From IMG/VR virus record IMGVR_UViG_2571042690_000010: a DNA stretch of 15,083 bases; one strand, given 5' to 3'. This document shows positions 1-15,083 of this stretch, one piece after another. This DNA is from a virus (Duplodnaviria; Heunggongvirae; Uroviricota; Caudoviricetes). The notes below the pieces were generated by a model that was not told the origin of the DNA, searched no databases, and saw only the letters and a program-made list of their open reading frames with translations. A program made the position numbers and the translations under genes. Position 1 is the stretch's first letter. Every line of letters begins with the position of its first letter.

Positions 1-40
1 AGAGAGGACCGTCGTAAGGCGGCACGGGGAGAGTAATTCA

Positions 41-391
41 ATGACTCAAAACTATGAACTGATTGTGAAAGGGATCCGCAATTTTGAGAATAAAGTTACG
101 GTAACTTTAGCGTTACGGGACAAAAAACGCTTTGACGGTGAAATTTTTGACCTGGACATCTCGCTGGACCGTGTTGAAGGTGCCGCGCTGGAGTTTTATG
201 AGGCAGCAGCCAGAAGGAGCATCAGACAGGTCTTCCTGGATGTTGCTGCCGCGTTATGTGAAGGGGATGAGCAGTCGCCGGAAAAGCGCCCCGTAATTTT
301 AGAGGCGCAGAATGTATGGATAACCTACAAAGGAAAGCTACCGGGAAGAATTACTGGTTCTCTGAAGACTCCTCCGGAATCACAACCTTAA
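41..391 (+). CDS. Hypothetical phage protein (116 aa), immediately upstream of the endolysin; function unknown
   Basis: Complete ORF with ATG at 41 preceded by GGGGAGAG about 8 nt upstream. No hydrophobic transmembrane stretch, so it is not a holin. It sits where Qin-type prophages carry ydfR between holin and lysozyme, but that is a positional guess from memory only. Confidence 0.55.
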   Translation: MTQNYELIVKGIRNFENKVTVTLALRDKKRFDGEIFDLDISLDRVEGAALEFYEAAARRSIRQVFLDVAAALCEGDEQSPEKRPVILEAQNVWITYKGKLPGRITGSLKTPPESQP

Positions 392-454
392 GTCACTGAC
401 CGGAACAGATAAACCTGTCCGTGGGCAGAAACCGATAAATCCTGATAAATATCC

Positions 455-988
455 ATGAACGCAAAAATCAGATACGGCCTGTCGGCTGCCGTTCTGGCAC
501 TGATTGCCGTCGGTGCGCCCGCGCCTGATATTCTCGACCAGTTTCTGGATGAAAAAGAAGGTAACCACACAACGGCATACCGCGATGGGTCCGGCATCTG
601 GACCATCTGTCGGGGGGCCACGATGGTGGATGGAAAACCCGTTTTTCCCGGTATGAAACTGTCGAAGGAAAAATGCGACCAGGTCAACGCCATTGAGCGT
701 GATAAGGCGCTGGCATGGGTGGAGCGCAATATTAAAGTACCACTGACCGAACCACAAAAAGCGGGTATAGCGTCATTCTGTCCCTATAACATTGGCCCCG
801 GTAAGTGTTTCCCGTCGACGTTTTATAAGCGGCTGAATGCCGGTGATCGTAAGGGCGCATGCGAGGCGATTCGCTGGTGGATAAAAGATGGTGGGCGCGA
901 TTGCCGCATACGTTCAAATAACTGCTATGGACAGGTTATTCGTCGTGACCAGGAAAGCGCATTAGCCTGTTGGGGGATAGAGCAGTGA
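455..988 (+). CDS. Phage endolysin, T4-lysozyme-like (GH24) with N-terminal signal-anchor-release (SAR) domain
   Basis: 177-aa ORF. The N-terminus [18 protein letters not shown] is a weakly hydrophobic Gly/Ala-rich segment typical of SAR domains. It is followed by [16 protein letters not shown], which fits the Glu-Asp-Thr catalytic spacing of T4-type lysozymes. It closely resembles the 177-aa R lysozymes of lambdoid E. coli prophages as I recall them. Confidence 0.9.
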
Positions 989-1446
989 GCAGAGTCGCCG
1001 CGATTATTTATGCTTTGGTTATCTGCATCATCGTCTGCCTGTCGTGGGCGGTCAATCATTACCGTGATAACGCCATCGCCTACAAAGAACAGCGTGATAA
1101 AAAAGTCAGTGAGCTGAAGCAGTCGATCGCCACCATCGCTGACATGCAGCAGCGTCAGCGTGATGTTGCTGCACTCGATGCAAAGTACTCGAGAGAATTA
1201 GCCAATGCGAAAGCTGAAAATGAAACTCTGCGCGCTGATGTTGCCGCTGGTCGTCGTCGGTTGCACATCAAAGCAGTCTGTCAGTCAGTGCGTGAAGCCA
1301 CCACCGCCTCCGGCGTGGATAATGCAACCAGCCCCCGACTGGCAGACACCGCTGAACGGGATTATTTCACCCTCAGAGAGAGGCTGATCACTATGCAAAA
1401 ACAACTGGAAGGAACCCAGAAGTATATTAATGAGCAGTGCAGATAG
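985..1446 (+). CDS. Rz: Rz i-spanin (inner-membrane spanin subunit)
   Basis: GTG at 985 overlaps the endolysin stop (GTGA). The product [30 protein letters not shown]... has an N-terminal TM helix and a coiled-coil periplasmic part, near-identical in pattern to lambda Rz (153 aa). The ORF track's TTG at 970 is a less likely start. Confidence 0.9.
1205..1387 (+). CDS. Rz1: Rz1 o-spanin lipoprotein, fully embedded in the +1 frame of Rz
   Basis: 60-aa [27 protein letters not shown]... with a lipobox (VVGC) and a PPPPP proline tract, as in lambda Rz1. It lies entirely inside Rz in another frame. Confidence 0.9.
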
Positions 1447-1449
1447 AGC

Positions 1450-1467
1450 TGCCCATATCGATGGGCA
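1450..1467. terminator. Hairpin in the 31-nt gap between convergent Rz and bor; possible bidirectional terminator
   Basis: TGCCCAT-ATCG-ATGGGCA forms a perfect 7-bp stem with a 4-nt loop between the Rz stop (1446) and the bor stop (1478). No clean U-run follows, so terminator function is uncertain. Confidence 0.3.
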
Positions 1468-1477
1468 ACTCATGCAA

Positions 1478-1771
1478 TTATTGTGAGCAATACACACGCG
1501 CTTCCAGTGGAGTATAAATGCCTAAAGTAATAAAACCGAGAAATCCATTTACGAATGTTTGCTGGGTTTCTGTTTTAACAACATTTTCTGCGCCGCCACA
1601 AATTTTGGCTGCATCAACAGTTTTCTCCTGTCCAATTCCCGAAACGAAGAAATGATGGGTGATGGTTTCCTTTGGTGTTACTGCTGTCGGTTTGTTTCCA
1701 ACAGTAAACGTCTGTTGAGCACATCCTGTAATAAGCATTGCCAGAGCGGCAGAAAACAACATTTTTTTCAT
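1478..1771 (-). CDS. bor: Bor/Iss-family outer-membrane lipoprotein (serum-resistance moron)
   Basis: Minus-strand ORF MKKMLFSAALAMLITGCAQQTFTV...EARVYCSQ has a lipoprotein signal with lipobox ITGC and matches the lambda Bor / E. coli Iss pattern as I recall it. The ATG at 1771 has an AGGA Shine-Dalgarno 7 nt upstream. An upstream in-frame ATG at 1786 (MQDNKMKKML, 102 aa as in Iss) has no Shine-Dalgarno. Confidence 0.9.
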   Translation of the reverse strand: MKKMLFSAALAMLITGCAQQTFTVGNKPTAVTPKETITHHFFVSGIGQEKTVDAAKICGGAENVVKTETQQTFVNGFLGFITLGIYTPLEARVYCSQ

Positions 1772-1787
1772 CTTATTATCCTGCATT

Positions 1788-1816
1788 GTTAAAAACGGCA
1801 GAATCCTATGTGACAA
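1788..1816 (-). promoter_or_regulatory. Candidate sigma70 promoter for bor
   Basis: On the minus strand: TTGTCA (-35, complement of 1811-1816), a 17-nt spacer, then TTTAAC (-10, complement of 1788-1793), placing the transcript start just upstream of the AGGA Shine-Dalgarno of bor. Hexamer match only. Confidence 0.35.
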
Positions 1817-1951
1817 CAATTAAACGATAGTTAAATGGATTGATGAAAATTAAAACTATATAGGTGGATGCTCAGCCTATCGGAGGTAGTCAGGATTTGA
1901 ATGTCAGTCTGTTGTCGGCATTCTGGCAATGCAATTTGGATAAAGCGGGGA

Positions 1952-2074
1952 TTAAAAAGATAGAGGCGAGCCGGTCAGGTAGAAATGAATCAGGCTCAAA
2001 GTGAAGCGGAAAAGGTCTGTGGCACAAGCTGATGCAGCCATAATTACAGCCTGATGATTTGTGGAATGAAACAT
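1952..2074 (-). CDS. Small hypothetical protein (40 aa) with a near-perfect Shine-Dalgarno, upstream of bor on the same strand
   Basis: Minus-strand ATG at 2074 preceded by AAGGAGG with a 6-nt spacer; stop TAA at 1952-1954. Product MFHSTNHQAVIMAASACATDLFRFTLSLIHFYLTGSPLSF. Absent from the ORF track because it is under 60 aa. No homolog recognised. Confidence 0.4.
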   Translation of the reverse strand: MFHSTNHQAVIMAASACATDLFRFTLSLIHFYLTGSPLSF

Positions 2075-2154
2075 GTTGAACCTCCTTAATTGATGTTATT
2101 CGAGTGATGAAGGCATTCTGTCCTTCTATAGTGTCCAGTAAATCAAACAGGAAA

Positions 2155-2176
2155 CTTGTCCAACGTGTTGGACAAG
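2155..2176. repeat. Perfect 10-bp inverted repeat (CTTGTCCAAC gt GTTGGACAAG)
   Basis: Read directly from the sequence. It lies about 80 bp upstream of the small minus-strand ORF and about 120 bp upstream of the HNH start. No U-run follows on the + strand, so it is more likely a protein-binding site than a terminator. Confidence 0.5.
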
Positions 2177-2296
2177 CCTCTCCATTAGTGAGTTGTATTG
2201 ATCACAACTCTACAAAGAATTCATTACTGGGTAGATGAAAATAGTTTCACTATGAATGGAGGAGGCTATGTCGGTGGCTTCTTCATTGGAGTACAT

Positions 2297-2647
2297 ATGC
2301 CCCCACGAATCCCACGCGCCTGCCGTAAGCGTGGATGTGCAGGTACAACCACAGACAGTTCTGGTTACTGCGATAAACATCGTGGCGAAGGATGGGTACA
2401 GCATCAACGCGGACTGAGCCGCCACCAGCGTGGCTATGGCTCGAAATGGGATGCCATACGTGCGCGCATACTGAAGCGTGATAATCATCTGTGTCAGAAC
2501 TGCCTGCGCAATGGGAGAGCCGTTGAAGCCAGAACTGTGGACCACATCATTCCGAAAGCTCATGGTGGCACGGATGCAGACAGTAACCTGCAGAGTCTGT
2601 GCTGGCCCTGTCATAAAGCAAAAACAGCGCGCGAACGCATCAATTGA
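2297..2647 (+). CDS. HNH homing-type endonuclease associated with the terminase (packaging accessory)
   Basis: ATG at 2297 with GGAG 5 nt upstream. The product has a Cys-rich N-terminus (CRKRGCAGTTTDSSGYCDKHR) and an HNH core (VDHIIPKAHGG...N...LCWPCH). It sits immediately upstream of the terminase genes, as in HK97-like phages. The ORF-track start at 2198 (TTG) and the ATG at 2252 lack a Shine-Dalgarno. Confidence 0.85.
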   Translation: MPPRIPRACRKRGCAGTTTDSSGYCDKHRGEGWVQHQRGLSRHQRGYGSKWDAIRARILKRDNHLCQNCLRNGRAVEARTVDHIIPKAHGGTDADSNLQSLCWPCHKAKTARERIN

Positions 2648-2794
2648 TAACAGTTCCCATCTGTAGGGGAGGGGCAGGCCAAATCTCTGCAACCCTGGCT
2701 GCTCAGTACCGCCGCCTGACCTTTCCTCGCATCGCCGCAGGTTCGAAAACTTTTTTTTGGAATGTGATTAAATGATTGATAGGTAAAACCGATT

Positions 2795-3277
2795 ATGTCT
2801 GGACCCCCGAAAACCCCGCCACGCCTGCATTTGATACGAGGCAACCCCTCAAAGCGGCCAGTTAAAGACCTCAAAAAAACCGCTAAAAAGGATGAAAAAG
2901 GTCTCCCTAAAATTCCGCAACATTTAGGGGCGCAGGGGAAGTACTGGTTCAGGCGAATGGCGGAAGAGCTGAATGCGGAAGGGATCATTTCTCAGCTTGA
3001 TGCGCGTGCGCTTGAGCTACTGGTGGAAGCCTATACCGAATACCGGCATCACTGCGAAACACTCGATGTTGAGGGGTACACCTACCGCTCGAAAACGCAG
3101 AACGGTGATGTGCTGATTAAGGCACACCCGGCTGCTGCGATGAAAGCGGATGCCTGGAAGCGGATCCGGGCGATGCTTGCAGAATTTGGTATGTCACCGG
3201 CAAGCCGGGCAAAAGTAAATACCGCCGGACCGGATAATGTTGATCCGCTGGCAGAGCTTTTAAAAGCGAGAGACTGA
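2795..3277 (+). CDS. Terminase small subunit, P27 family
   Basis: 160-aa ORF with a basic N-terminus (GNPSKRP...KKTAKKDEKGLPKIP) and a family-typical body (YTEYRHHCETLDVEGYTYRSKTQNGDVLIKAHPA). Positioned between the HNH gene and the large terminase. Confidence 0.85.
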   Translation: MSGPPKTPPRLHLIRGNPSKRPVKDLKKTAKKDEKGLPKIPQHLGAQGKYWFRRMAEELNAEGIISQLDARALELLVEAYTEYRHHCETLDVEGYTYRSKTQNGDVLIKAHPAAAMKADAWKRIRAMLAEFGMSPASRAKVNTAGPDNVDPLAELLKARD

Positions 3278-5034
3278 TGGCAAAAGTGGCTGACGGGATC
3301 CGCTACGCCGAACGTGTTGTTGCAGGAGAAATTGTTGCTGGCGAATTTGTCCGCCTGGCCTGCCAGCGTTTTCTTGATGATCTGAAGTACGGCGAAAAGC
3401 GGGGGATTTATTTCAGTGAACCCCGTGCGCAGCACATCCTGAATTTCTACAAATTTGTGCCTCATGTAAAAGGGGCACTGGCAGGCCAGCCCATTGAGTT
3501 GATGGACTGGCATGTATTTATCCTCATTAATATTTTTGGTTTTGTCATTCCGCTGGTCAATGAAGAAACCGGGGAAGTTGTCATGCGCAGCGATGGCAGC
3601 GGACGTCCGGTGATGGTGCGCCGGTTCCGGACGGCGTACAACGAAGTCGCCCGTAAAAACGCAAAATCAACCCTGTCATCGGGTATCGGCCTGTATATGA
3701 CGGGGGCAGATAGTGAAGGCGGAGCTGAGGTGTATTCAGCCGCAACCACGCGTGACCAGGCCAGAATCGTGTTTGAAGACGCCAAAAATATGGTCAGAAA
3801 AGCCCGGTCGACACTCGGGCGGTTGTTTGATTTCAACAAGCTGGCGATTTACCAGGAGCAGAGCGCATCAAAATTTGAACCGCTTTCCTCGGATGCAAAC
3901 AACCTGGACGGTCTGAACATCCACTGCGCCATTATTGATGAGCTGCATGCACATAAAACCCGCGACGTGTGGGACGTTCTGGAAACGGCAACCGGTGCCC
4001 GTCTGCAGTCCCTGTTATTTGGTATCACCACGGCTGGCTTTAACAAGGAAGGGATTTGTTACGAGCAGCGTGATTACGCCATCAAGGTATTGCGAGGCTA
4101 TAACAGCGACGTGGAGGGCGCTGTAAAAGACGACTCTTACTTTGCGATCATTTACACGCTTGATGAGGGAGATGATCCGTTTGATGAAACGGTCTGGCAG
4201 AAAGCGAATCCTGGCCTGGGCATCTGTAAACGCTGGGATGATCTGCGTCGTCTGGCGAAAAAAGCGAAGGAGCAGGTCTCTGCGCGGGTGAATTTTTTTA
4301 CCAAACACATGAATGTGTGGGTCACTGCCGAATCTGCCTGGATGGATATGATTAAGTGGGAGAAGTGCGAATACATTGCTCCACAACATGAGCTGAAAAC
4401 ATATCCCATGTGGGTCGGCGTCGACCTTGCTCATAAGATTGATATCTGTGCGGCGGCAAAACTCTGGCGAACCGATAACGGACATGTTCATGCTGATTTT
4501 AAATTCTGGCTTCCGGAAGGACGGCTGGAACGATGCTCGCGGCAGCAGGCAGAACTTTACCGGAAGTGGGCGGAGATGGATAAGCTCATCCTGACGGATG
4601 GTGATGTTATCGATCATGCTCAGATAAAAAGTGACTTACTGGAATGGATTGGCGGTGAAAACCTCAGGGAACTGGGATTTGACCCGTGGAGCGCAATGCA
4701 GTTCAGTCTGGCACTGGCTGAAGAAGGGATACCGCTGGTGGAGGTTCCGCAGACGGTCCGCAATCTGTCAGAGGCCATGAAGGAAACGGAATCACTGGTT
4801 TATGCCGGGCGTTTCCATCACAGCAATCATCCGGTCATGAACTGGATGATGTCTAACGTTACTGTAAAACCGGACAAAAACGACAACATCTTCCCGAATA
4901 AATCCACGCCGGAAGCCAAAATCGACGGCCCTGTTGCGCTTTTTACAGCCATGAGCCGCTTTCTGGTAAATGGCGGGGGCGTGAATGACTTTCTGTCCAC
5001 GCTTGATCCTGATGAGGACCTGTTAATTCTGTGA
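3277..5034 (+). CDS. Terminase large subunit (HK97-like, Terminase_1 type)
   Basis: 585-aa ORF whose ATG overlaps the small-subunit stop (ATGA). Size, position before portal, and ATPase/nuclease-like motifs (for example AIIDELHAH) support the call. Confidence 0.9.
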   Translation: MAKVADGIRYAERVVAGEIVAGEFVRLACQRFLDDLKYGEKRGIYFSEPRAQHILNFYKFVPHVKGALAGQPIELMDWHVFILINIFGFVIPLVNEETGEVVMRSDGSGRPVMVRRFRTAYNEVARKNAKSTLSSGIGLYMTGADSEGGAEVYSAATTRDQARIVFEDAKNMVRKARSTLGRLFDFNKLAIYQEQSASKFEPLSSDANNLDGLNIHCAIIDELHAHKTRDVWDVLETATGARLQSLLFGITTAGFNKEGICYEQRDYAIKVLRGYNSDVEGAVKDDSYFAIIYTLDEGDDPFDETVWQKANPGLGICKRWDDLRRLAKKAKEQVSARVNFFTKHMNVWVTAESAWMDMIKWEKCEYIAPQHELKTYPMWVGVDLAHKIDICAAAKLWRTDNGHVHADFKFWLPEGRLERCSRQQAELYRKWAEMDKLILTDGDVIDHAQIKSDLLEWIGGENLRELGFDPWSAMQFSLALAEEGIPLVEVPQTVRNLSEAMKETESLVYAGRFHHSNHPVMNWMMSNVTVKPDKNDNIFPNKSTPEAKIDGPVALFTAMSRFLVNGGGVNDFLSTLDPDEDLLIL

Positions 5035-5192
5035 AACAGCTTATTACTGATATGACCGGGCTGATCGGTTTCGGTCTGCTCACTGCTGGCGTTTATCTGT
5101 ATGCAGGTCTGCCAGCGTCTCTGATGCTGTCTGGCTGTTTGTTGCTGCTTTATGCACTGGTGGTGTCCATGAGGAGAAAACATGCTTCTTGA
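5031..5192 (+). CDS. Small hypothetical membrane protein (about 46-53 aa, two predicted TM helices)
   Basis: ORF starting at GTG 5031 (overlapping the large-terminase stop) or ATG 5052, ending TGA 5190-5192 and overlapping the portal start. Product ...MTGLIGFGLLTAGVYLYAGLPASLMLSGCLLLLYALVVSMRRKHAS has two hydrophobic segments and a basic C-terminus. Not in the ORF track (under 60 aa). Weak Shine-Dalgarno. Confidence 0.35.
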   Translation: MKQLITDMTGLIGFGLLTAGVYLYAGLPASLMLSGCLLLLYALVVSMRRKHAS

Positions 5193-6408
5193 TGCTCTGT
5201 TTCGCAGTGAGCCTCTGGAAAATCCCTCGGTTCCGGTAACCGGAGAGGCCGCAGAGACGGATAATATTTTTGCCCGGGATGTGTATGTCAGTCCGGAAAC
5301 GTCCATGAGGCTGGCTGCTGTCTATGCCTGTATTTATGTTATTTCATCCAGTGTGGCTCAGATGCCCCTGCATGTGATGCGAAAAACGAATGAGCATGTT
5401 CAGCCGGCACGCGATCACCCGTTGTTCTGGCTCGTTCATGATGAACCGAATGCCTGGCAGACCAGCTATAAGTGGCGGGAACTGAAGCAGCGTCATGTGC
5501 TGGGGTGGGGCAATGGTTATACGTGGGTGAAACGTAATCGTCGTGGCGAGGTTACCAGTCTTGAATGCTGTATGCCATGGGAAACCACGTTACTTAACAC
5601 CGGAGGGCGTCATACCTACGGTGTGTATAACGAAGAGGGTGCATTTGCGGTAAGTCCGGACGACATGATCCATATCAGGGCGCTGGGAAACAATCAGAAA
5701 ATGGGACTGAGTCCGATCATGCAGCATGCTGAAACCATTGGTATGGGAATGAGTGGTCAGCAGTATACCAGTGCTTTTTTTAACGGTAATGCCCGTCCTG
5801 CCGGGATTATTTCTGTGAAAAATGAACTGAACGAACAGAGTTGGAGCAGGCTCAAGAATATGTGGCAGCGGGCGGTGACAGCGCTTCGCAGCCAGGAAAA
5901 TAAAACCATGTTGCTGCCTGCGCAACTGGATTACCGCGCTCTGACAGTTTCTCCGGTGGATGCTCAGATCATTGATATGACCAAGCTGAACCGGTCGATG
6001 ATTGCCGGGATTTTTAATGTCCCGGCGCACATGATTAATGACCTGGAAAAAGCCACATTTTCGAATATTACGCAGCAGGCGATTCAGTTTGTTCGCTACA
6101 CGATGATGCCCTGGGTTGCGAACTGGGAGCAGGAGCTTAACCGTCGCCTGTTTACCCGTACAGAACGGGCTGCCGGGTATTACGTTCGTTTCAACCTCAC
6201 GGGGTTGCTCCGTGGGACCCCACAGGAGCGTGCGCAGTTCTATCACTTTGCCATTACAGATGGCTGGATGAGTCGGAATGAAGCCAGGGCATTTGAGGAT
6301 ATGAACCCGGTTGACGGTCTGGATGAAATGCTGGTCAGCGTAAATGCAGCAAATCCGTTGAATAACTTTAAAGATACGAAAGGCAAAGAGGAAAAGAACG
6401 ATGAATGA
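5182..6408 (+). CDS. Portal protein, HK97 family
   Basis: 408-aa ORF with a strong Shine-Dalgarno (GAGGAG, 5-nt spacer), in the canonical position after the large terminase and before the prohead protease. Confidence 0.9.
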   Translation: MLLDALFRSEPLENPSVPVTGEAAETDNIFARDVYVSPETSMRLAAVYACIYVISSSVAQMPLHVMRKTNEHVQPARDHPLFWLVHDEPNAWQTSYKWRELKQRHVLGWGNGYTWVKRNRRGEVTSLECCMPWETTLLNTGGRHTYGVYNEEGAFAVSPDDMIHIRALGNNQKMGLSPIMQHAETIGMGMSGQQYTSAFFNGNARPAGIISVKNELNEQSWSRLKNMWQRAVTALRSQENKTMLLPAQLDYRALTVSPVDAQIIDMTKLNRSMIAGIFNVPAHMINDLEKATFSNITQQAIQFVRYTMMPWVANWEQELNRRLFTRTERAAGYYVRFNLTGLLRGTPQERAQFYHFAITDGWMSRNEARAFEDMNPVDGLDEMLVSVNAANPLNNFKDTKGKEEKNDE

Positions 6409-7000
6409 CCGTGAAACGCGCTGTTACAGCGGGGAGGTGCGGGCGGAACAATATGATAATGCCCCGACCCACATTCTGGGCTATGGCTCGGTATTTAACA
6501 GTCGTTCAGAACCTCTGTGGGGATTTCGTGAAATCATCAAGCCGGGGGCTTTTGATGATGTACTGAATGATGATGTACGTGGCTTGTTTAATCATGATCC
6601 TAATTTCATTCTCGGACGAAGTTCTGCCGGCACGTTGTCATTGTCGGTGGATGAACGCGGTTTACGTTATGACATTGTTGCACCGGATACTCCGACTATT
6701 TGTGACCTGGTGCTATCTCCAATGTTGCGTGGTGACATTAATCAGTCCTCGTTCGCGTTTCGTGTCGCCCGTGACGGAGAGAGCTGGTATGAAGACGACG
6801 AGGGGATTGTTATCCGGGAAATCACGCGCATTTCTCGTCTGTATGACGTCAGCCCGGTGACATATCCGGCCTATCAGGACGCAGACTCTGGTGTCCGCTC
6901 AATGAAAGCCTGGCAGGAAGCGCGGGCGAGTGGTGCGCTGAAGAAAGCTGTTAACGAACGAATGGCGCGTGAGCGTCTTTTGACCCTTCTTAATGCATAA
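6401..7000 (+). CDS. Prohead maturation protease, HK97 family (S78-like)
   Basis: 199-aa ORF overlapping the portal stop, with a Shine-Dalgarno AAGAGGAAAAG. Sits between portal and major capsid; the motif around LGYGSVFNSRSEP...GLFNHD fits the HK97 prohead protease pattern. Confidence 0.85.
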   Translation: MNDRETRCYSGEVRAEQYDNAPTHILGYGSVFNSRSEPLWGFREIIKPGAFDDVLNDDVRGLFNHDPNFILGRSSAGTLSLSVDERGLRYDIVAPDTPTICDLVLSPMLRGDINQSSFAFRVARDGESWYEDDEGIVIREITRISRLYDVSPVTYPAYQDADSGVRSMKAWQEARASGALKKAVNERMARERLLTLLNA

Positions 7001-7014
7001 GGATACTACTGACG

Positions 7015-8232
7015 ATGAAACTTCATGAGATGAAGCAAAAACGAAACACCATTGCAAAGGATATGCGTGCACTGCATGAAAAAATTGGTGATAACGCATG
7101 GACTGATGAGCAACGGGCAGAGTGGAACAGGGCGAAAGCTGAGCTGGATGCGCTGGATGAGCAAATCGCCCGTGAAGAAGAGTTGCGCCGTCAGGATCAG
7201 GCATATGTGGATGAGTCCGGGCCGGAAGAGCGCCAGAATAATGAGGCGGAGAACGGGAAAAAGGCGGTGGAAGAGAAGCGCGCTGCGGCATTTAACCGTT
7301 TTCTGCGTGCCGGATTTGCAGAACTGAATGCTGAAGAGCGTAATCTGATGCGTGAACTGCGGGCTCAGAGTGTAACAACGGATTCTCAGGGCGGATATAC
7401 GGTGCCCACGCAGATGCGTAACAAAATCATTGACACCATGAAGGCTTATGGCGGGATTGCCAGTGTGGCGCAACTTCTGACCACATCAACCGGGCAGGAT
7501 ATCACCTGGTCAACGTCTGATGGCACGACTGAAGAGGGCGAACTGCTGGCGGAAAATACAGCCGCAACGGAACAGGATGTGACGTTCGGGACCGCTATTC
7601 TGGGGGCTAAAAAGCTGTCATCAAAAATAATTCGTGTGTCCAATGAGCTGCTCCAGGACAGTGGGGTGGATATTGAATCTTATCTGGCAAACCGTATTGC
7701 CCAGCGTATTGGTCGTGGAGAGGCAAAATATCTGGTTCAGGGGACCGGAACGGGATCACCGTTACAGCCAAAAGGGCTGGCAGCGTCGGTGACGGGAACC
7801 ATCCAGACTGTAGCCTCTGCCGCTTTCACCTGGAAAGAAATGAATGCCCTGAAACATGCCATTGATCCGGCATATCGTGGTGGGCCGAAATACCGCTGGG
7901 CATTCAATGATGCCACATTGCAGACTATTGAAGAGATGGAGGATGGACAGAAACGCCCGTTATGGCTGCCGGATATTGCAGGCGGTACGCCGGCTACTGT
8001 GCTGGGGATCCCTTATGTTATTGATCAGGCTATTGACGGGATTGGTACCGGAAAAAAATTCATTTTCCTGGGGGATTTCAACCGCTTTATCATTCGCCGC
8101 GTTACTTATATGGAACTGAAACGTCTGGTTGAGCGTTATGCTGAGTTTGATCAGGTGGCATTTCTGGCTTTCCATCGTTTTGACTGTGTGCTGGAAGATG
8201 TGGCAGCCATCAAGGCGCTCACTGGCAAATAA
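7015..8232 (+). CDS. Major capsid protein, HK97 fold, with N-terminal coiled-coil delta (scaffolding) domain
   Basis: 405-aa ORF. The N-terminal ~100 aa are highly charged and coiled-coil-like (DEQRAEWNRAKAELDALDEQIAREEELRRQDQ), followed by a capsid body. There is no separate scaffold gene between protease and capsid. Confidence 0.9.
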   Translation: MKLHEMKQKRNTIAKDMRALHEKIGDNAWTDEQRAEWNRAKAELDALDEQIAREEELRRQDQAYVDESGPEERQNNEAENGKKAVEEKRAAAFNRFLRAGFAELNAEERNLMRELRAQSVTTDSQGGYTVPTQMRNKIIDTMKAYGGIASVAQLLTTSTGQDITWSTSDGTTEEGELLAENTAATEQDVTFGTAILGAKKLSSKIIRVSNELLQDSGVDIESYLANRIAQRIGRGEAKYLVQGTGTGSPLQPKGLAASVTGTIQTVASAAFTWKEMNALKHAIDPAYRGGPKYRWAFNDATLQTIEEMEDGQKRPLWLPDIAGGTPATVLGIPYVIDQAIDGIGTGKKFIFLGDFNRFIIRRVTYMELKRLVERYAEFDQVAFLAFHRFDCVLEDVAAIKALTGK

Positions 8233-8252
8233 CCACTCGTTGTTCAGTTACA

Positions 8253-8276
8253 GACCGCGCCGACGCGGTTTTTTTA
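8253..8276 (+). terminator. Rho-independent terminator after the major capsid gene
   Basis: ACCGCG-CCGA-CGCGGT stem-loop followed by 7 T, about 20 nt after the capsid stop. Confidence 0.7.
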
Positions 8277-8308
8277 TGCCCGCACAGTGTTGCGGGCAGG
8301 AGTTTCTG

Positions 8309-8626
8309 ATGGCAGCAATAGTGGAAAAACTCAGGGCGCAGTGCCGTATTGATACAGATGATGCAACTGATGATGAGTTACTGATGCTGTATTTCCGGGC
8401 TGCCTGCCGCAAGGCAGAAAATTTTATCAACCGTAAGCTTTATGAGGAGACGGTGCCGGAAGGTGATCCTGAAGGGGTGCTTATAGCTGATGATGTTTTG
8501 CTGGCGCTCATGTTGCTGGTCGGGCACTGGTACGAAAACCGGGAAAATTCCTCAGATGTCAGCAAGGCACCAGTCCCGTTTGGTTTTTCTTCTCTGCTGG
8601 AGCCTTATCGTTTTATTCCTTTGTAG
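8309..8626 (+). CDS. Head-tail connector protein (gp6-like, Phage_connect_1 type)
   Basis: ATG at 8309 with GCAGGAG 6 nt upstream. The product MAAIVEKLRAQCRIDTDDATDDELLMLYFRAACRKAENFI matches the gp6-like pattern LRxxxRID-acidic-L...A. The ORF-track start at 8129 would overlap the capsid gene and the terminator. Confidence 0.8.
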   Translation: MAAIVEKLRAQCRIDTDDATDDELLMLYFRAACRKAENFINRKLYEETVPEGDPEGVLIADDVLLALMLLVGHWYENRENSSDVSKAPVPFGFSSLLEPYRFIPL

Positions 8627-8634
8627 GAGGAGAC

Positions 8635-8973
8635 ATGCAGGCGGGCAGATTACGTGATCGCGTAATTATTCTGAATGTCACCACCGCCCGCTCTCCGTCA
8701 GGGCATCCGGTGGAGACGGTGACGGAGGGAGCTACCGTATGGGCAGAAGTTAAGGGTATCAGCGGGAGGGAGATAATCTCAGGCGGAGCAGAAACCGCTC
8801 AGGCTACGGTCAGAGTCTGGATGAGATTCCGGCGCGATGTGACAGCGACTTCACGTCTGAAAGTGCTGACCGGTGCATTTAAAGGGGCCATTCTGGGTAT
8901 AGAAGGTCCACCAATACCGGATGCACGCGCTACCCGGCTTGAAATACTCTGCAGCCTGAAGGGGAATGTGTGA
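8635..8973 (+). CDS. Head-tail adaptor / head closure protein (SPP1 gp16-like)
   Basis: 112-aa ORF with an excellent Shine-Dalgarno (AGGAGGAG). The pattern GRLRDRV...VWAEVKGISGREI...RVWMRFRRDV is typical of this family. Confidence 0.8.
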   Translation: MQAGRLRDRVIILNVTTARSPSGHPVETVTEGATVWAEVKGISGREIISGGAETAQATVRVWMRFRRDVTATSRLKVLTGAFKGAILGIEGPPIPDARATRLEILCSLKGNV

Positions 8974-9419
8974 TGGATTTCAGTCTTGATTTTTCCGGCC
9001 TGGCGGATATTGCACGGGATTTGGAGACGCTCAGCAGGGCAGAAAACAATAAGGTTCTGCGCGATGCCACCCGTGCCGGTGCTGAAGTTATGCGGGATGC
9101 AGTTGTTGAACGTGCGCCGGAGCGAACCGGGAAACTGAAGAAAAATGTGGTTGTTCTCACTCAGCGTTCAAAGCGTCGGGGGGAAATTATCTCGGGTGTC
9201 CACATTCGCGGACGGAACCTGCGAACCGGAAACAGTGATAACAGCATGAAAGCCAGCGATCCCCGAAATGCATTTTACTGGCGCTTTGTGGAGCTGGGAA
9301 CGATAAACATGCCCGCGCATCCATTCATTCGCCCGGCTTTCGATACGACAGAGGAACTGGCAGCACGGATTGCCATACAGCGAATGAATCAGGCTATTGA
9401 TGAGGTCTTAAGTAAATGA
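8973..9419 (+). CDS. HK97 gp10-family protein (tail completion / neck)
   Basis: ATG at 8973 overlaps the upstream stop (TGATG); a GTG at 8970 is also possible. About 148 aa, in the conserved position; family assignment from gene order and general sequence character. Confidence 0.7.
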   Translation: MDFSLDFSGLADIARDLETLSRAENNKVLRDATRAGAEVMRDAVVERAPERTGKLKKNVVVLTQRSKRRGEIISGVHIRGRNLRTGNSDNSMKASDPRNAFYWRFVELGTINMPAHPFIRPAFDTTEELAARIAIQRMNQAIDEVLSK

Positions 9420-9760
9420 GAGAGGCCACACTGTATTCCCTGTTGTCTCAGCTGGCCGGAGGACAGGTTTATCCTTATGTGGTCCCACTGACGGAGGGAA
9501 AGCCTGCGGTATCTCCGCCGTGGCTGGTGTTTTCTGTGGTGTCTGACACGGCATCTGATGTGCTTGATGGGCAGGCTGAATCCAGAATTACCGTGCAGAT
9601 CGATGTCTGGGCGACAGTACCTGATGACGCAGATAATATTCGTGAGCAGGCGCTTGATGCGGTAAGAAAACTGGCACCCTCCGTTATTTCTAAAACGCAG
9701 GGTTATGATCCTGACTCCCGTCTGAGCAGAGCCACGCTTGAATTTCAGGTAATAGCCTGA
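9416..9760 (+). CDS. Tail-component protein (probable tail terminator/completion protein, lambda gpU position)
   Basis: 114-aa ORF whose ATG overlaps the upstream stop; the last gene before the major tail protein. Called from gene order; the specific family is not certain. Confidence 0.6.
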   Translation: MREATLYSLLSQLAGGQVYPYVVPLTEGKPAVSPPWLVFSVVSDTASDVLDGQAESRITVQIDVWATVPDDADNIREQALDAVRKLAPSVISKTQGYDPDSRLSRATLEFQVIA

Positions 9761-9780
9761 GGTCATTAATGATTTTACCC

Positions 9781-9803
9781 ACCCGCCGCTGGCGGGTTTT
9801 TTT
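9781..9803 (+). terminator. Rho-independent terminator upstream of the major tail gene
   Basis: ACCCGCC-GCT-GGCGGGT stem followed by 7 T, then ATTTT, then the Shine-Dalgarno and start of the major tail gene. Confidence 0.7.
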
Positions 9804-9820
9804 ATTTTCAGGAGACGAGT

Positions 9821-10525
9821 ATGTCCTCTAATTTTGAGCGTTCGCAACTGACGAAAATTATGATTTCGTCTGCACCGGTAACAGCAGAAACCCTGGATTC
9901 TGCCAGCTATCTTGGCCTGAGCTGTACAATCAAAGAGGTGCAGTTTACCGCAGGACAAAAGCAGGATATTGATGTCACCACGCTGTGTTCTGTTGAGCAG
10001 GAAAATATTAACGGTCTTGGTGCCGCGTCAGAGATTTCCATGTCAGGCAACTTTTATCTGAATGCTGCCCAGAACGCGTTGCGCAGTGCCTATGACAATG
10101 ACACCACGTATGGCTTTAAAGTTATTTTTCCGTCAGGCAACGGATTTACCTTTATGGCAGAGGTGCGTCAGCATACCTGGTCTGCAGGAACCAATGGTGT
10201 TGTGGCTGCAACGTTTTCCTTGCGCCTGAAAGGTAAACCTGTGCTGACGACAGAGCCGCTGAAAGTGAAGGCCGATTTAAAAAGCACGCTGCGGGTTGCT
10301 TCCGGAGCGAAACTTGAAATGGCGGTTGAGGCTGCGGGTGGTGTGCCGCCTTATTCTTATGTCTGGAAGAAAGGTGGTTCTCCTGTTTCCGGACAGACGG
10401 CGGCAACGTTCAGTAAGGCATCGGCAGTATCCGGTGATGCGGGTGCATATACCTGCGAGATTTCTGATTCAGCAAGCCCGGTTAACAAAGTGACCTCCAC
10501 TTCCTGCACTGTAACCGTCAGTTAA
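9821..10525 (+). CDS. Major tail (tube) protein with C-terminal Ig-like domain
   Basis: 234-aa ORF with Shine-Dalgarno AGGAGACGAGT. The C-terminal ~95 aa (PPYSYVWKKGGSPVSGQTAATFSKASAVSGDAGAYTCEISDSASP) show the Y-x-C Ig-like signature, as on lambda gpV and other tube proteins. Confidence 0.8.
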   Translation: MSSNFERSQLTKIMISSAPVTAETLDSASYLGLSCTIKEVQFTAGQKQDIDVTTLCSVEQENINGLGAASEISMSGNFYLNAAQNALRSAYDNDTTYGFKVIFPSGNGFTFMAEVRQHTWSAGTNGVVAATFSLRLKGKPVLTTEPLKVKADLKSTLRVASGAKLEMAVEAAGGVPPYSYVWKKGGSPVSGQTAATFSKASAVSGDAGAYTCEISDSASPVNKVTSTSCTVTVS

Positions 10526-10539
10526 TGAGGATGGATGTG

Positions 10540-10911
10540 ATGACTAAAAATATCCGTAATCTGGCACTGGCAACGATGTCGGGGTTTCGCCATAAAACCG
10601 TTGATGTGCCTGAATGGGAGGGAGCAACGGTTGTGTTACGGGAACCTTCTGCAGAAGCCTGGTTGCGCTGGCAGGAGATCGTTAAAGCAAAAGATGATGA
10701 GACACCGTTATCCGTTGCGGAGCGCGCCCGCCGAAATCTGGAGGCAGATGTTGAACTGTTCATTGATGTTCTGTGTGATACCGGACTGCAACCCGTATTT
10801 TCAGAGGATGATCGTGAACAGGTGATTGCCGTGTATGGCCCGGTGCATGCGCGGCTTCTTCGGCAGTCTCTGGAACTGATCAGTGATGCCGGCGAGGTTA
10901 AAAAAAAGTAG
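10540..10911 (+). CDS. Tail assembly chaperone (lambda G analogue); zero-frame product ending at the slippery site
   Basis: ATG at 10540 is preceded by GAGGA with an 8-nt spacer; the ATG at 10525 overlapping the tail-gene stop is an alternative. The product ends GEVKKK at the A8G tract. Confidence 0.75.
   Translation: MTKNIRNLALATMSGFRHKTVDVPEWEGATVVLREPSAEAWLRWQEIVKAKDDETPLSVAERARRNLEADVELFIDVLCDTGLQPVFSEDDREQVIAVYGPVHARLLRQSLELISDAGEVKKK
10902..10908 (+). promoter_or_regulatory. Programmed -1 ribosomal frameshift slippery heptamer A_AAA_AAG
   Basis: An A8G run sits at the last two Lys codons of the chaperone ORF. The downstream ORF is in the -1 frame (start coordinate mod 3 is 1 for the chaperone, 0 for the extension) and has no Shine-Dalgarno of its own. 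Confidence 0.8.
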
Positions 10912-11213
10912 CGCTTCCGGGGATGCGTTTTCTGATGATGCTGGCGCTCAGGATGGGGCGCACATTGTCAGAGTTACGCCGGGAAATGTCCGCATCAGAA
11001 ATCATGATGTGGGCAGAATTTGACAGGTTCAGCCCGCTGGGGGACGAACGGGCTGATATCCGGGCTGCCCAGATTGTTTCAGCTGTTTACGGTGCGCAGG
11101 GGGTCAAAGTGCCACTGAATGATGCGCTTCTTCAGTGGGAGACGGAGCAGACAGAAGGCGTATCAGATCCATTTGCCGGACTGGAAAACGCGCTTTTAAT
11201 AGTGTCTCAGTGA
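10908..11213 (+). CDS. Tail assembly protein T-like extension, expressed as a G-T fusion by -1 frameshift
   Basis: The -1 frame is open from 10908 (GTA) through 11213. The ORF-track ATG at 10923 has no ribosome-binding site. The product ...LSELRREMSASEIMMWAEFDRFSPLGDERADIRAAQI resembles the T domain of enterobacterial prophages. Confidence 0.7.
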   Translation, partial: VALPGMRFLMMLALRMGRTLSELRREMSASEIMMWAEFDRFSPLGDERADIRAAQIVSAVYGAQGVKVPLNDALLQWETEQTEGVSDPFAGLENALLIVSQ

Positions 11214-11221
11214 GTCAACAT

Positions 11222-11243
11222 AACCGCTTCGGCGGTTTTTTTT
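11222..11243 (+). terminator. Rho-independent terminator (UUCG tetraloop) before the tape measure gene
   Basis: AACCGC-TTCG-GCGGTT stem followed by 8 T. Confidence 0.65.
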
Positions 11244-11253
11244 CGTCCGGAGA

Positions 11254-14200
11254 ATGAGTGTGGCGACATTACGTGAACTGATTATTAAAATCTCGGCAAA
11301 TTCCCGGTCATTCCAGTCAGAGATCTCCCGGGCTTCGCGTATGGGGCAGGATTACTACCGTACCATGCAGAACGGAGGCCGGCAGTCCGCTGCTGCATCC
11401 CGTGAAATGCGGCGTGCACTGGCAGAAGTGACGGATCAGATAAATACAGCTAAATCTTCGGCACTGAATATGGCGGGGGCATTTGCCGGGGCTTTTGCTA
11501 CCGGTCATCTTATTTCTTTCGCCGATGAGTGGAATTCAGTAAATGCCCGTCTGAAGCAGGCCTCACAGTCCAGTGATGATTTTCAGGCATCACAGCGTGA
11601 ATTAATGGCGATCAGCCAGAGAACGGGGACGGCGTTTTCTGATAACGCCAGCCTTTTTGCCCGTTCTGCAGCTTCCATGCGGGAGTATGGTTACAGTTCT
11701 GAGGAGGTACTGAAAGTCACCGAGGCGATCTCCACGGGCCTGAAATTATCCGGTGCCAGTACAGCAGAAGCCAGTTCGGTGATCACGCAGTTCAGTCAGG
11801 CACTGGCGCAGGGAGTGCTGCGCGGTGAAGAGTTTAACTCGGTGAATGAGAACGGCGATCGTGTTATTCGTGCGCTGGCTGCGGGAGTGGGGGTTGCCCG
11901 TAAGGATCTGAAGGCCATGGCGGATAACGGAAAGTTGACCGCCGATAAGGTTGTTCCTGCACTGATTAGTCAGCTTGGGGCATTACGTGATGAATATGCG
12001 GCAATGCCTGATACGGTTTCATCCTCTGCAACCAAAGTTGAAAACGCCTTTATGGCCTGGGTTGGTGGTGCGAACGAGGCAAGCGGAGTGACGAAGACGC
12101 TCTCCGGTGTGCTGAATGGTATTGCAGGCAATATTGACACTGTGGCAACCGCTGCCGGTGCTCTGGTTGCCGTCGGGGTAGCCCGATATTTTGGCAATAT
12201 GGCGTCTTCTGCTGGATCTGCAACTGCCGGATTAATTACTGCAGCCAGAAACGAAGTGGCTCTTGCGGAAGCGCAGCTCCGGGGGACACAGATAGCAACA
12301 GCCAGGGCGCGTGCGGCGGTTTATCGTGCGCAACAGGCGGTTGTTGCTGCTCGCGGTACCGAAAGGCAGGCAGCCGCAGAAGCGAAACTGGCTGCTGCCC
12401 AGGCATCACTTACCCGTAATATTGCGGCCAGAACAGCAGCACAGACAACGCTGAATACTGTCACGTCAGTGGGAAGTCGTCTGTTAAGTGGAGCACTGGG
12501 ACTGGTTGGTGGGGTGCCGGGGCTTGTCATGCTGGGGGCCGCGGCCTGGTACACGATGTATCAGAATCAGGAGCAGGCCAGAGAATCTGCACGCCAGTAT
12601 GCCGCAAAAATCGACGAAATTCGCCAGAAAACGTCGGCAATGTCGCTTCCTGAAGCGTCAGATAATGAGGAAAAGACGCGGCAGGCACTTGATGAGCAAA
12701 ACAGGTTAATTGACGAGCAGAAAAGTAAGATTAAATCCTTACAGGAAAAAATTGCTGGCTATCAGTATGTGCTGGCAAACCCGGGCTGGACAACCGATAA
12801 CGGTTTTATGATTAACCACATGACGTCGGTAAAAACAGTCACAGAAGGGCTTGCAGAAGCAACAAATCAACTGGCAGTTGAACAGTCCCGTCTCACACAA
12901 ATGCAGGGCAAAGCGCAATCCATTCAGGATGTGCTTGCCGGGCTGGAGGAGCGGCGGGTTGCGTTGATCCGTCAACAGGCGGCGGAACAAAACAAAGCGT
13001 ATCAGTCCCTGTTGATCATGAATGGGCAGCATACCGAGTTTAATCGCCTTCTTGGGCTTGGTAATGAATTACTTCAGCAGCGACAGGGGCTGGTGAATGT
13101 ACCGTTACGGCTACCACAGGCAACCCTGGATGATAAACAGCAGACCGCACTGAATAACAGCAAGCGCGAACTGGCTCTGTCCCGCCTTAAGGGGGAAGCG
13201 CGTGAGCGTGCCCGACTGGGCTATGCTGCGGATGATCTCGGCTTTGTGGGAGAGGCGTATCAGACAGCCAGACAGAATTATATCAATAACTCACTGGATG
13301 CCTGGCGAAATAACCAGGCAAATAAACCCAAAGCGCATAAAAAGACCGAAGCGGAAAAAACAGAAGATATTTATAAACGGCTGATTAAACAGCAAAAAGA
13401 ACAGATAGCACTGGCAGGGCAGAATACTGAACTGGCTAAGATGAAATATCAGGTCAGTCAGGGCGAATTATCAACCCTGTCAGAAGCGCAGAAAAAAACG
13501 CTTTTGCAGAATGCAGCACTCATCGACCAGAAAAAGATTCGTGAGCAGCTTGCTGCGTATGAAAGCAGCCTGGCGGACAGTAATGCCAGTACCCGGGCGT
13601 CTAACGACGCGCAGTTACTGGGATATGGTGAAGGCTCACGGATGCGTGAACGACTCCAGGAAATGTGGAGTATCCGGCATGAGTTTGAGCAGAAAAATAA
13701 CGAGCTGCTGAGACAGTATCAGGCCGGAGAAATTGAAGAAGCCCTGTGGAAACAGGAGAAAGAACTGAATAAAAAATATCTGGAAGAGCGTCTCAGCGAT
13801 CAGCAGGATTATTATGCAAAGGCCGATGCTTTACGTAATAACTGGAATGCAGGACTCCAGGAGGGGCTGACCAACTGGGCAGACAGTGCCACCGATTATG
13901 CTTCGCAGGCGGCAGATGCTGTCGTTTCCACTATGGACGGGCTGGTATCAAATATTTCCGATGCGCTGGCCGGAAATGTTGTGGACTGGAGAAACTGGGG
14001 GAGTTCAATTCTCCAGGAAGTTTCAAAAATTCTGATGAATGCGGCCATTGTTAACGGACTGAAGTCACTCTCCGGTGCCGGAGGGTGGCTTGGTACGGTC
14101 GGCGGATGGATTTCGGGGGCGGTGGCAAACGCAAAAGGTGGTGTTTACACATCGGCAAATCTGAGTGCTTACAGTAACACTATTGTGGATACACCGACGT

Positions 14201-14487
14201 ATTTTGCTTTTGCGAAAGGTGCCGGGCTGATGGGCGAGGCCGGGCCTGAAGCTATCATGCCACTGACACGGGCAGCGGACGGCTCTCTTGGGGTCAGAGC
14301 CATTGGCAATGTGAATAGTGGCGGGGGGGTTGTTTATTCTCCCGTGTATCACATCAGCATTCAGAATCAAGGGAGCAATGGCGAGATAGATGCGCGCTCA
14401 GCCAGGGGACTGGTGGATCTGATCGACAGCAGGGTTGTGTCAATTATGCAGTCATCGCGTCGGGATGGAGGATTGTACAGTGCCTGA
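11254..14487 (+). CDS. Tail tape measure protein
   Basis: 1077-aa ORF, Ala/Gln-rich with extended coiled-coil character and a Gly-rich C-terminal region, directly downstream of the G/GT pair. The start is ATG 11254 or GTG 11258; the latter has better spacing to GGAG. Confidence 0.9.
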   Translation: MSVATLRELIIKISANSRSFQSEISRASRMGQDYYRTMQNGGRQSAAASREMRRALAEVTDQINTAKSSALNMAGAFAGAFATGHLISFADEWNSVNARLKQASQSSDDFQASQRELMAISQRTGTAFSDNASLFARSAASMREYGYSSEEVLKVTEAISTGLKLSGASTAEASSVITQFSQALAQGVLRGEEFNSVNENGDRVIRALAAGVGVARKDLKAMADNGKLTADKVVPALISQLGALRDEYAAMPDTVSSSATKVENAFMAWVGGANEASGVTKTLSGVLNGIAGNIDTVATAAGALVAVGVARYFGNMASSAGSATAGLITAARNEVALAEAQLRGTQIATARARAAVYRAQQAVVAARGTERQAAAEAKLAAAQASLTRNIAARTAAQTTLNTVTSVGSRLLSGALGLVGGVPGLVMLGAAAWYTMYQNQEQARESARQYAAKIDEIRQKTSAMSLPEASDNEEKTRQALDEQNRLIDEQKSKIKSLQEKIAGYQYVLANPGWTTDNGFMINHMTSVKTVTEGLAEATNQLAVEQSRLTQMQGKAQSIQDVLAGLEERRVALIRQQAAEQNKAYQSLLIMNGQHTEFNRLLGLGNELLQQRQGLVNVPLRLPQATLDDKQQTALNNSKRELALSRLKGEARERARLGYAADDLGFVGEAYQTARQNYINNSLDAWRNNQANKPKAHKKTEAEKTEDIYKRLIKQQKEQIALAGQNTELAKMKYQVSQGELSTLSEAQKKTLLQNAALIDQKKIREQLAAYESSLADSNASTRASNDAQLLGYGEGSRMRERLQEMWSIRHEFEQKNNELLRQYQAGEIEEALWKQEKELNKKYLEERLSDQQDYYAKADALRNNWNAGLQEGLTNWADSATDYASQAADAVVSTMDGLVSNISDALAGNVVDWRNWGSSILQEVSKILMNAAIVNGLKSLSGAGGWLGTVGGWISGAVANAKGGVYTSANLSAYSNTIVDTPTYFAFAKGAGLMGEAGPEAIMPLTRAADGSLGVRAIGNVNSGGGVVYSPVYHISIQNQGSNGEIDARSARGLVDLIDSRVVSIMQSSRRDGGLYSA

Positions 14488-14821
14488 GCCTGAAGTTTTT
14501 AACTGGATCCCCCGTGAGGGGATGGAGACGACACGAAAGCCATCAGTTATTACGGTAAAGTTTGGTGACGGATATGAACAGAGACGGGCTGGTGGTCTGA
14601 ATGCGGATCTGAAAACGTTTAAACCGGTATTTCGTGTCACAGATGAATATTCCCGTGCCGCGCTGGACAGTTTTTTATCCCGTCATGCCGGGATTCGTGC
14701 TTTTTTGTGGCGTCCGCCAAAACACAACAGGACTGTCCGGGTTGTCTGCAGGGAGTGGAGCATTTCGGATAATGCCATGTATACCGATTTTAACTGTACC
14801 TTTGAAGAGGTCACTCACTGA
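14480..14821 (+). CDS. Minor tail protein, lambda M-like
   Basis: GTG at 14480 with GGAGGA 7 nt upstream gives 113 aa, comparable to lambda M (109 aa). It shares VxFGDGYxQRxxxGLNAxLKT and FLWxPP motifs with lambda M as I recall it. The ORF-track start at 14435 lies deep inside the tape measure gene. Confidence 0.85.
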   Translation: MPEPEVFNWIPREGMETTRKPSVITVKFGDGYEQRRAGGLNADLKTFKPVFRVTDEYSRAALDSFLSRHAGIRAFLWRPPKHNRTVRVVCREWSISDNAMYTDFNCTFEEVTH

Positions 14822-14833
14822 TGCAGGATATAC
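14821..14833 (+). pseudogene. Truncated 5' end of a lambda L-like minor tail gene, interrupted by an insertion sequence
   Basis: ATG overlapping the M-like stop (TGATG) encodes MQDI, the same opening as lambda L. The reading frame then enters IS-like sequence and stops after 27 codons. Confidence 0.55.
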
Positions 14834-15083
14834 GTAAGCGTAAACTGACCGCCGTATGTAGCCATCAGACGAGAATTGGTAACTTAGACGCCCATCTGAT
14901 ATAGACGGACATCTAAGTATGGAATTACAGGACTGGCGAAAAGAACCTCGTAAAAACTATTCGAATGAATTCAAACTTCGTATGGTGGAACTGGCATCAC
15001 AACCTGGAGCTTGTGTTGCACAGATTGCACGTGAAAATGGCGTCAATGATAATGTTATTTTCAAATGGCTCAGGCTCTGGCAG
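14834..15083 (+). mobile_element. Left end of an insertion sequence, probably IS66 family (partial; continues beyond the window)
   Basis: Homology to the tail gene breaks at a terminus beginning GTAAGCG; IS66-family inverted repeats characteristically start 5'-GTAA. A transposase-accessory-type ORF begins 85 bp inside. The right end is outside the window, so inverted repeat and target duplication cannot be verified. Confidence 0.6.
14919..15083 (+). CDS. IS transposase accessory protein OrfA/TnpA, N-terminal fragment (helix-turn-helix); IS66 family likely, IS3 family not excluded
   Basis: ATG at 14919; MELQDWRKEPRKNYSNEFKLRMVELASQPGACVAQIARENGVNDNVIFKWLRLWQ is open to the window end. The YSxEFK...VAQIARExGV...WLR pattern is the HTH of IS OrfA proteins, and I recall near-identical IS66-family TnpA sequences in E. 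coli. Confidence 0.7.
   Translation, partial: MELQDWRKEPRKNYSNEFKLRMVELASQPGACVAQIARENGVNDNVIFKWLRLWQ

Follow-up and report, generated by a model that had tools for sequence, protein, structure and literature searches.

In lambda genetics, the L gene is required for tail assembly and is not dispensable. Its product, gpL, is a trimeric tail-tip hub protein with a C-terminal [4Fe-4S] domain, whereas the side tail fibre of lambda is dispensable and its stf gene is naturally frameshifted (PMC10721106). Three ORFs (tnpA, tnpB and a DDE transposase), imperfect terminal repeats and an 8-bp target-site duplication are hallmarks of the classic IS66-family elements (PMC12888890). One element of this family, ISEc23, is common in E. 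coli, where it is found complete as a 2,532-bp copy with tnpA, tnpB and DDE transposase genes and flanking 8-bp duplications, and copies of it lie in the tail genes of lambdoid prophages. In strains 1446, 1447, AZ189 and AZ190, ISEc23 sits in the late-gene orientation 120 nt into K (target ATATCTCC), and in the MEI strains it sits in the same orientation 151 nt into the tape-measure gene H (target TGAAATGC). Both copies are complete with duplications. A BLAST search of INPHARED also revealed an identical 250-nt left end of the element in tail fibre or side tail fibre features of the phages 4A7, Lambda_4C10, D2, 1W and 3W (records LR595861, LR595864/NC_049946, OM475427, OM475428 and OM475430). 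Their deposition as phage genomes suggests that these IS-bearing lambda-like phages remain viable. It appears that ISEc23 travels inside phage genomes when it is in a gene that is dispensable in lambda, unlike the L gene disrupted in the locus described here.

The stretch of DNA analysed in this study (15,083 nucleotides, called the window below) is the entire contig AYNG01000026.1 of the draft genome of E. coli LAU-EC7 (GCA_000506465.2), an ESBL-producing stool isolate from Lebanon whose draft is an A5-pipeline assembly of 250-bp MiSeq reads (PMC3931373). Apart from a single SNP, bases 1-14833 are the same as in a prophage found in many ST131 strains, among them EC958, JJ1886 and 4/0. At the SNP (11143), the window has C against A, so that tail assembly protein T carries the substitution K70T, which also appears in the G-T fusion. 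An exact look-up of this rare T protein led to the source contig. The rest of the contig is the left part of an ISEc23 copy whose 250 bases equal one read length. Since the IS is a repeat, the assembly broke there and the contig stops inside it. It is likely that ISEc23 transposed by simple insertion into the start of a lambda-L-type hub gene, that tail function was thereby lost, and that the event belongs to the decay of the prophage. The features are collected in Table 1.

Table 1. Features of the window, with positions counted from its first nucleotide
Feature	Position	Strand	Support or remark
YdfR-family protein, lysozyme and Rz genes, intact			
bor/iss lipoprotein gene	1478-1771	-	Pfam Lambda_Bor, E 3.7e-30
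HNH endonuclease, TerS and TerL genes, intact			
Portal, prohead protease, major capsid protein, connector and head-closure protein genes, intact			head
gp10-like protein and tail-completion protein genes, intact			
Genes for the tail tube/Ig protein, for G (PF06222) and T (PF06223), and for a tape-measure protein of 1,075 aa, intact			tail
M-like distal tail protein gene, intact, 118 aa	14465..14821	+	Pfam PF05939 Phage_min_tail, E 1.2e-31
L-like tail-tip hub gene, 5' stub ATGCAGGATATAC, 13 nt	14821..14833	+	4 codons + 1 base
Chimeric 27-codon ORF, MQDI + RKRKLTAVCSHQTRIGNLDAHLI	14821..14904	+	translation, ORF list
Predicted left copy of the 8-bp target-site duplication, GGATATAC	14826..14833	.	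prediction from ISEc23 8-bp duplications
ISEc23 (IS66 family), left 250 bp, late-gene orientation, cut by the contig end	14834..15083	+	
Left terminal inverted repeat, begins GTAAGCG	14834..14857	.	20/24 match to the right end, measured on complete identical copies
tnpA (IS66 accessory HTH protein), first 55 of 141 codons	14919..15083	+	HTH_Tnp_1, E 6.6e-12

The prophage is lambdoid, with an HK97-type head and a lambda-type tail, and is located at tRNA-Ser/mtfA of ST131-type E. coli. Translation shows that none of the 20 genes ahead of L is damaged in the window; their names follow the annotations of EC958 and MEI2B. The window genes follow the order of a lambda-type tail module (V-G/GT-H-M-L-K-I-J), and L-K-I-J come next in the relatives. 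In these relatives, M is followed by L, K (a C40 peptidase), I, J, lom, IS200C and tail-fibre genes, and M-L-K-I-J is intact in EC958 and JJ1886. The name 'Phi4' from the EC958 genome paper was considered for this prophage and rejected, as it denotes a different prophage at about 1.48 Mb.

Some further traits of the prophage were noted. The bor/iss gene separates the lysis cassette from the HNH/terminase genes; it is annotated in relatives as 'increased serum survival lipoprotein Iss' and is thus a virulence-associated gene aboard the prophage. The G-like gene ends with ...GTT AAA AAA AAG TAG, and T lies in the -1 frame (10540-11213, with the A-run at 10899-10906). The A_AAA_AAG sequence looks like the slippery site for a programmed frameshift of the lambda-type G/GT kind, and re-reading one base at the A-run gives an open G-T fusion of about 224 aa. 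Towards its 3' end, the tape-measure gene has seven consecutive G residues (14323-14329), a tract of the same length in all close relatives.

As for the left junction, the stop codon of the M-like gene (TGA, 14819-14821) overlaps with the start codon of L at 14821 (ATGA). The M product is WP_001330090.1, as in EC958 and strain 1446, and an exact look-up of this protein gave about 9,756 blocks of the searched collection. The preliminary description, made from the window alone, had read an overlapping ATG encoding MQDI, an L-type gene cut after about four codons, and an abrupt end of homology at a GTAAGCG terminus. The first reading is exact, the second is correct to the base (four codons and one nucleotide), and the third agrees with the alignments. 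The stub agrees at every base with the opening 13 nt of L, a gene of 699 nt in the otherwise identical prophage. In uninterrupted relatives, ATGCAGGATATAC runs into AGCAGGAAACAC (in strain 4/0, ATGCAGGATATAC runs into AGCAGGAAACACTC), whereas in the window ATGCAGGATATAC runs into GTAAGCGTAAACTG. Thus, the match to L stops at its nt 13 (14833), and foreign DNA follows from 14834. Moreover, in a megablast search of 5,426 complete E. coli genomes, the phage-type matches end precisely at 14833 in thousands of genomes.

The chimeric 27-codon ORF is the sole translatable product from the L start codon. Its fifth residue (R) spans the junction, with C from L and GT from the IS. The resulting MQDIR resembles the opening of the lambda protein, but the likeness is accidental, since the native L protein of this prophage starts with MQDIQQE. 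An intact L encodes a full-length hub with an N-terminal beta-sandwich and a C-terminal four-cysteine [4Fe-4S] domain. The L allele of the relatives is of this full-length gpL / Phage_tail_L (PF05100) type; it was aligned end to end with lambda gpL (PDB 8IYK, E 1.5e-151) and matched Pfam Phage_tail_L with E 6.5e-99. With 13 nt left, what remains in the window is a disrupted remnant of L rather than an L gene.

The inserted DNA (14834-15083) is identical at 250 of 250 positions to the left end of the 2,532-bp ISEc23 copy of strain 1446, which bears out the earlier assignment to the IS66 family. The name ISEc23 rests on the PGAP label 'IS66-like element ISEc23 family transposase' for this identical copy. 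The IS boundary was fixed by an alignment in which the flanks of five independent copies diverge precisely at GTAAGCG. A boundary 12-24 nt further upstream, taken from a plasmid BLAST, was rejected; the alignment shows merely loosely similar target sites there. The OrfA-type HTH ORF that had been placed 85 bp into the element is tnpA, whose ATG at 14919 lies at exactly this distance inside the IS end and whose product is identical to the start of WP_000422741.1. ISEc23 in RefSeq E. coli genomes has the same 250 nt, the same terminus and the same position of tnpA. Over the part that the window contains, this copy differs from ISEc23 elsewhere solely by its insertion site.

In the complete strain 1446 copy, which is flanked by the duplication ATATCTCC, three ORFs match the Pfam families HTH_Tnp_1, TnpB_IS66 (tnpB, PF05717, E 1.1e-36) and DDE_Tnp_IS66 (DDE transposase, PF03050, E 9e-98), and zinc-finger, leucine-zipper and C-terminal IS66 domains were also found. 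Shortened forms of the element exist as well. A 256-bp miniature ISEc23 consists of just the two ends and is flanked by a perfect 8-bp duplication, ACCATCAC (locus L026, minus strand, from 2667), and an internally deleted derivative of 1,539 bp also has a perfect 8-bp duplication (locus L053). This suggests that the deleted derivatives are non-autonomous copies mobilised in trans.

A simple insertion predicts a right junction reading ...GTTGACGCTTAC-GGATATAC-AGCAGGAAACACTC. Among 18 independent ISEc23 copies with both ends visible, 14 are flanked by perfect 8-bp duplications and four have none; thus, rearranged ISEc23 copies are not rare. In the annotation of LAU-EC7, there is a 211-aa 'tail protein' (ETE29630.1; P0001 in this study) that equals residues 22-232 of the L type of this prophage. 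Therefore, the 3' part of L is present in the LAU-EC7 genome. The contigs displayed with this protein (L013 and L014) run into a full-length K (247 aa), I, J, lom and stf; for 10.6 kb, their identity with EC958 is 100%. The LAU-EC7 contig was grouped with them as a 'similar place', and the contigs with intact K-I-J-lom-stf seem to belong to the same sublineage.

The displayed contigs L013 and L014 begin at nt 62 of L. This start was considered as an IS boundary and rejected, because nt 61 is the first variable site among related L genes and ST131 genomes have 3-5 M/L-like regions. For the same reason, it was attributed to an assembly fork between paralogues. On the side of the element, LAU-EC7 contigs begin 250 nt inside the IS right end, and the predicted 72-aa TnpC fragment (P0047) is annotated there; the ten listed places with P0047 are other IS copies. 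I infer that the L remainder adjoins the right end of the IS in LAU-EC7. Taken together, the proportion of ISEc23 copies with duplications, the L remainder in the LAU-EC7 genome and the intact downstream genes favour a simple insertion with an 8-bp duplication.

The main competing explanation is that the IS at L bounds a larger rearrangement, such as an inversion or recombination between ISEc23 copies, with the L remainder and K-I-J elsewhere and no duplication. The four copies without a duplication fit such an event, and so do the presence of several ISEc23 copies per ST131-type genome and the contigs that start inside the IS right end. In addition, the predicted right junction CGCTTAC-GGATATAC-AGCAGG was not found in GTDB representative genomes, JGI metagenomes or IMG/VR. 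Exact protein look-ups gave the same picture: a TTG-started L form of 234 aa was not on record, and neither was any of ten partial L forms that span the junction and are open to the edge. Residues 22-232 of L and an intact K-I-J are compatible with an inversion between IS copies. However, the majority of the independent copies (14 of 18) are simple insertions, and the L remainder and the downstream tail genes are found in LAU-EC7 in the normal order. A rearrangement is thus unlikely, although its probability is not trivial.

It was also considered that an adjacent deletion in an ancestor like 1446, 1447, AZ189 and AZ190 removed the segment from L nt 14 to K nt 120, so that L would be absent. 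These four strains were the only ones among the 5,426 complete genomes that matched the whole window at 100%, and their ISEc23 in K is located 812 bp downstream in the same orientation and in the same prophage. On the other hand, they do not have the window SNP at 11143, LAU-EC7 encodes residues 22-232 of the L type of this prophage, and the contigs with the 211-aa L protein carry the full-length K. Since the L remainder and a full-length K-I-J are seen, the deletion from a 1446-type ancestor is strongly disfavoured and I consider it very improbable.

That the L-IS junction is a chimeric assembly artefact, as might be suspected of a short-read draft contig ending inside a repeat, has next to no probability, because the break falls exactly at the IS terminus and three assemblies from different samples, with overhangs into the IS of 250, 77 and 54 nt that indicate different assembly settings or software, contain it. 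The second of these is NTOZ01000038.1 and the third is an ENA gut-metagenome scaffold; both have the K70T marker as well. As three independent assemblies share the junction, it is real and belongs to a small sublineage. Elsewhere, the L insertion site was absent from the 5,426 complete E. coli genomes searched by megablast, the left junction was not found by exact-pattern scans of GTDB representative genomes, JGI metagenomes and IMG/VR, and BLAST found no record with the junction among INPHARED phages or PLSDB plasmids.

Returning to the simple insertion, the event may be pictured as follows. An ISEc23 copy with its tnpA, tnpB and DDE transposase genes would have entered L directly after its nt 13, pointing the same way as the late genes. 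The 8-bp duplication GGATATAC would have been made, and beyond the 2.5-kb element L would continue, with K, I and J after it. L would no longer be produced, its start codon leading into the chimeric ORF. Without the trimeric gpL hub, functional tails could presumably not assemble from this prophage. Judged from the sequence, it is reasonable to conclude that L function has been lost. A tail defect of the prophage may soundly be expected, since lambda gpL is the tail-tip hub.

The preliminary description had also raised a possible polar loss of the K/I/J-type genes. This is doubtful. A Q-type antiterminator (PF03589, E 1.6e-54) is located upstream of the lysis genes in this prophage family, the IS is in the late-gene orientation, and terminator-like sites are not in excess in ISEc23, where a consensus scan gave 2 and the expected number is 2.8. 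Furthermore, K-I-J-lom-stf look intact in the contigs that are seemingly of the same sublineage.

The insertion may not fully kill L, although this is an improbable outcome. In the sequence predicted for a simple insertion, a reading frame stays open from the IS right end across into L, and it contains a TTG, preceded by GGTG, 19 nt beyond the stop codon of the transposase gene. If the insertion is simple, a start at this TTG would give MTLT-DIQQETLNE..., that is, an L protein with just its first two residues replaced. With such a start, translational coupling to the transposase on the antiterminated late mRNA could still provide a functional hub.

The prophage shows signs of earlier decay. 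In EC958, JJ1886, 4/0 and 1446 (loci L057 for EC958, L058, L059 and L060), four independent assemblies with an identical prophage, the annotation marks the tyrosine integrase gene beside tRNA-Ser as frameshifted. In EC958 (L057), the frameshifted integrase lies at 1510-2560, and an IS200C at 38133-38591 separates lom from the tail-fibre gene. As the integrase is frameshifted in these four relatives, the prophage was probably already cryptic and unable to excise before the insertion. The ISEc23 insertion would thus be a further step of decay in an already cryptic prophage.

Compared with the K and H copies, the window copy is found in another gene and at another target, only 13 nt into L. The three insertions arose independently in the tail module of one prophage family, all of them close to the start of a gene. 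Their positions are 17411 in H (locus L018), 14834 in L (the window) and 7246 in K (locus L001; the K insertion was also seen in L048 and L037). The K target ATATCTCC was hit twice, the second time in the opposite orientation in an IMG/VR contig. These sites hint at a preference of ISEc23 for the 5' parts of lambdoid tail genes and for the orientation of the late genes, in numbers too small to judge. As in lambda L mutants, an L gene is affected, whose native product is a full-length homologue of gpL, while here the loss is due to an IS in a prophage.

The event is of an ordinary and already known kind; a known IS has entered a known prophage, and the allele is present in public assemblies. 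The junction together with the K70T change of the T protein is a handy marker of a small sublineage comprising LAU-EC7, NTOZ01 and one gut metagenome. The annotation of such a contig should read 'L disrupted by ISEc23' rather than describe a prophage ending at M. The locus offers a clean example of a resident prophage that has had an essential tail gene inactivated by an IS, in an E. coli lineage of clinical importance.
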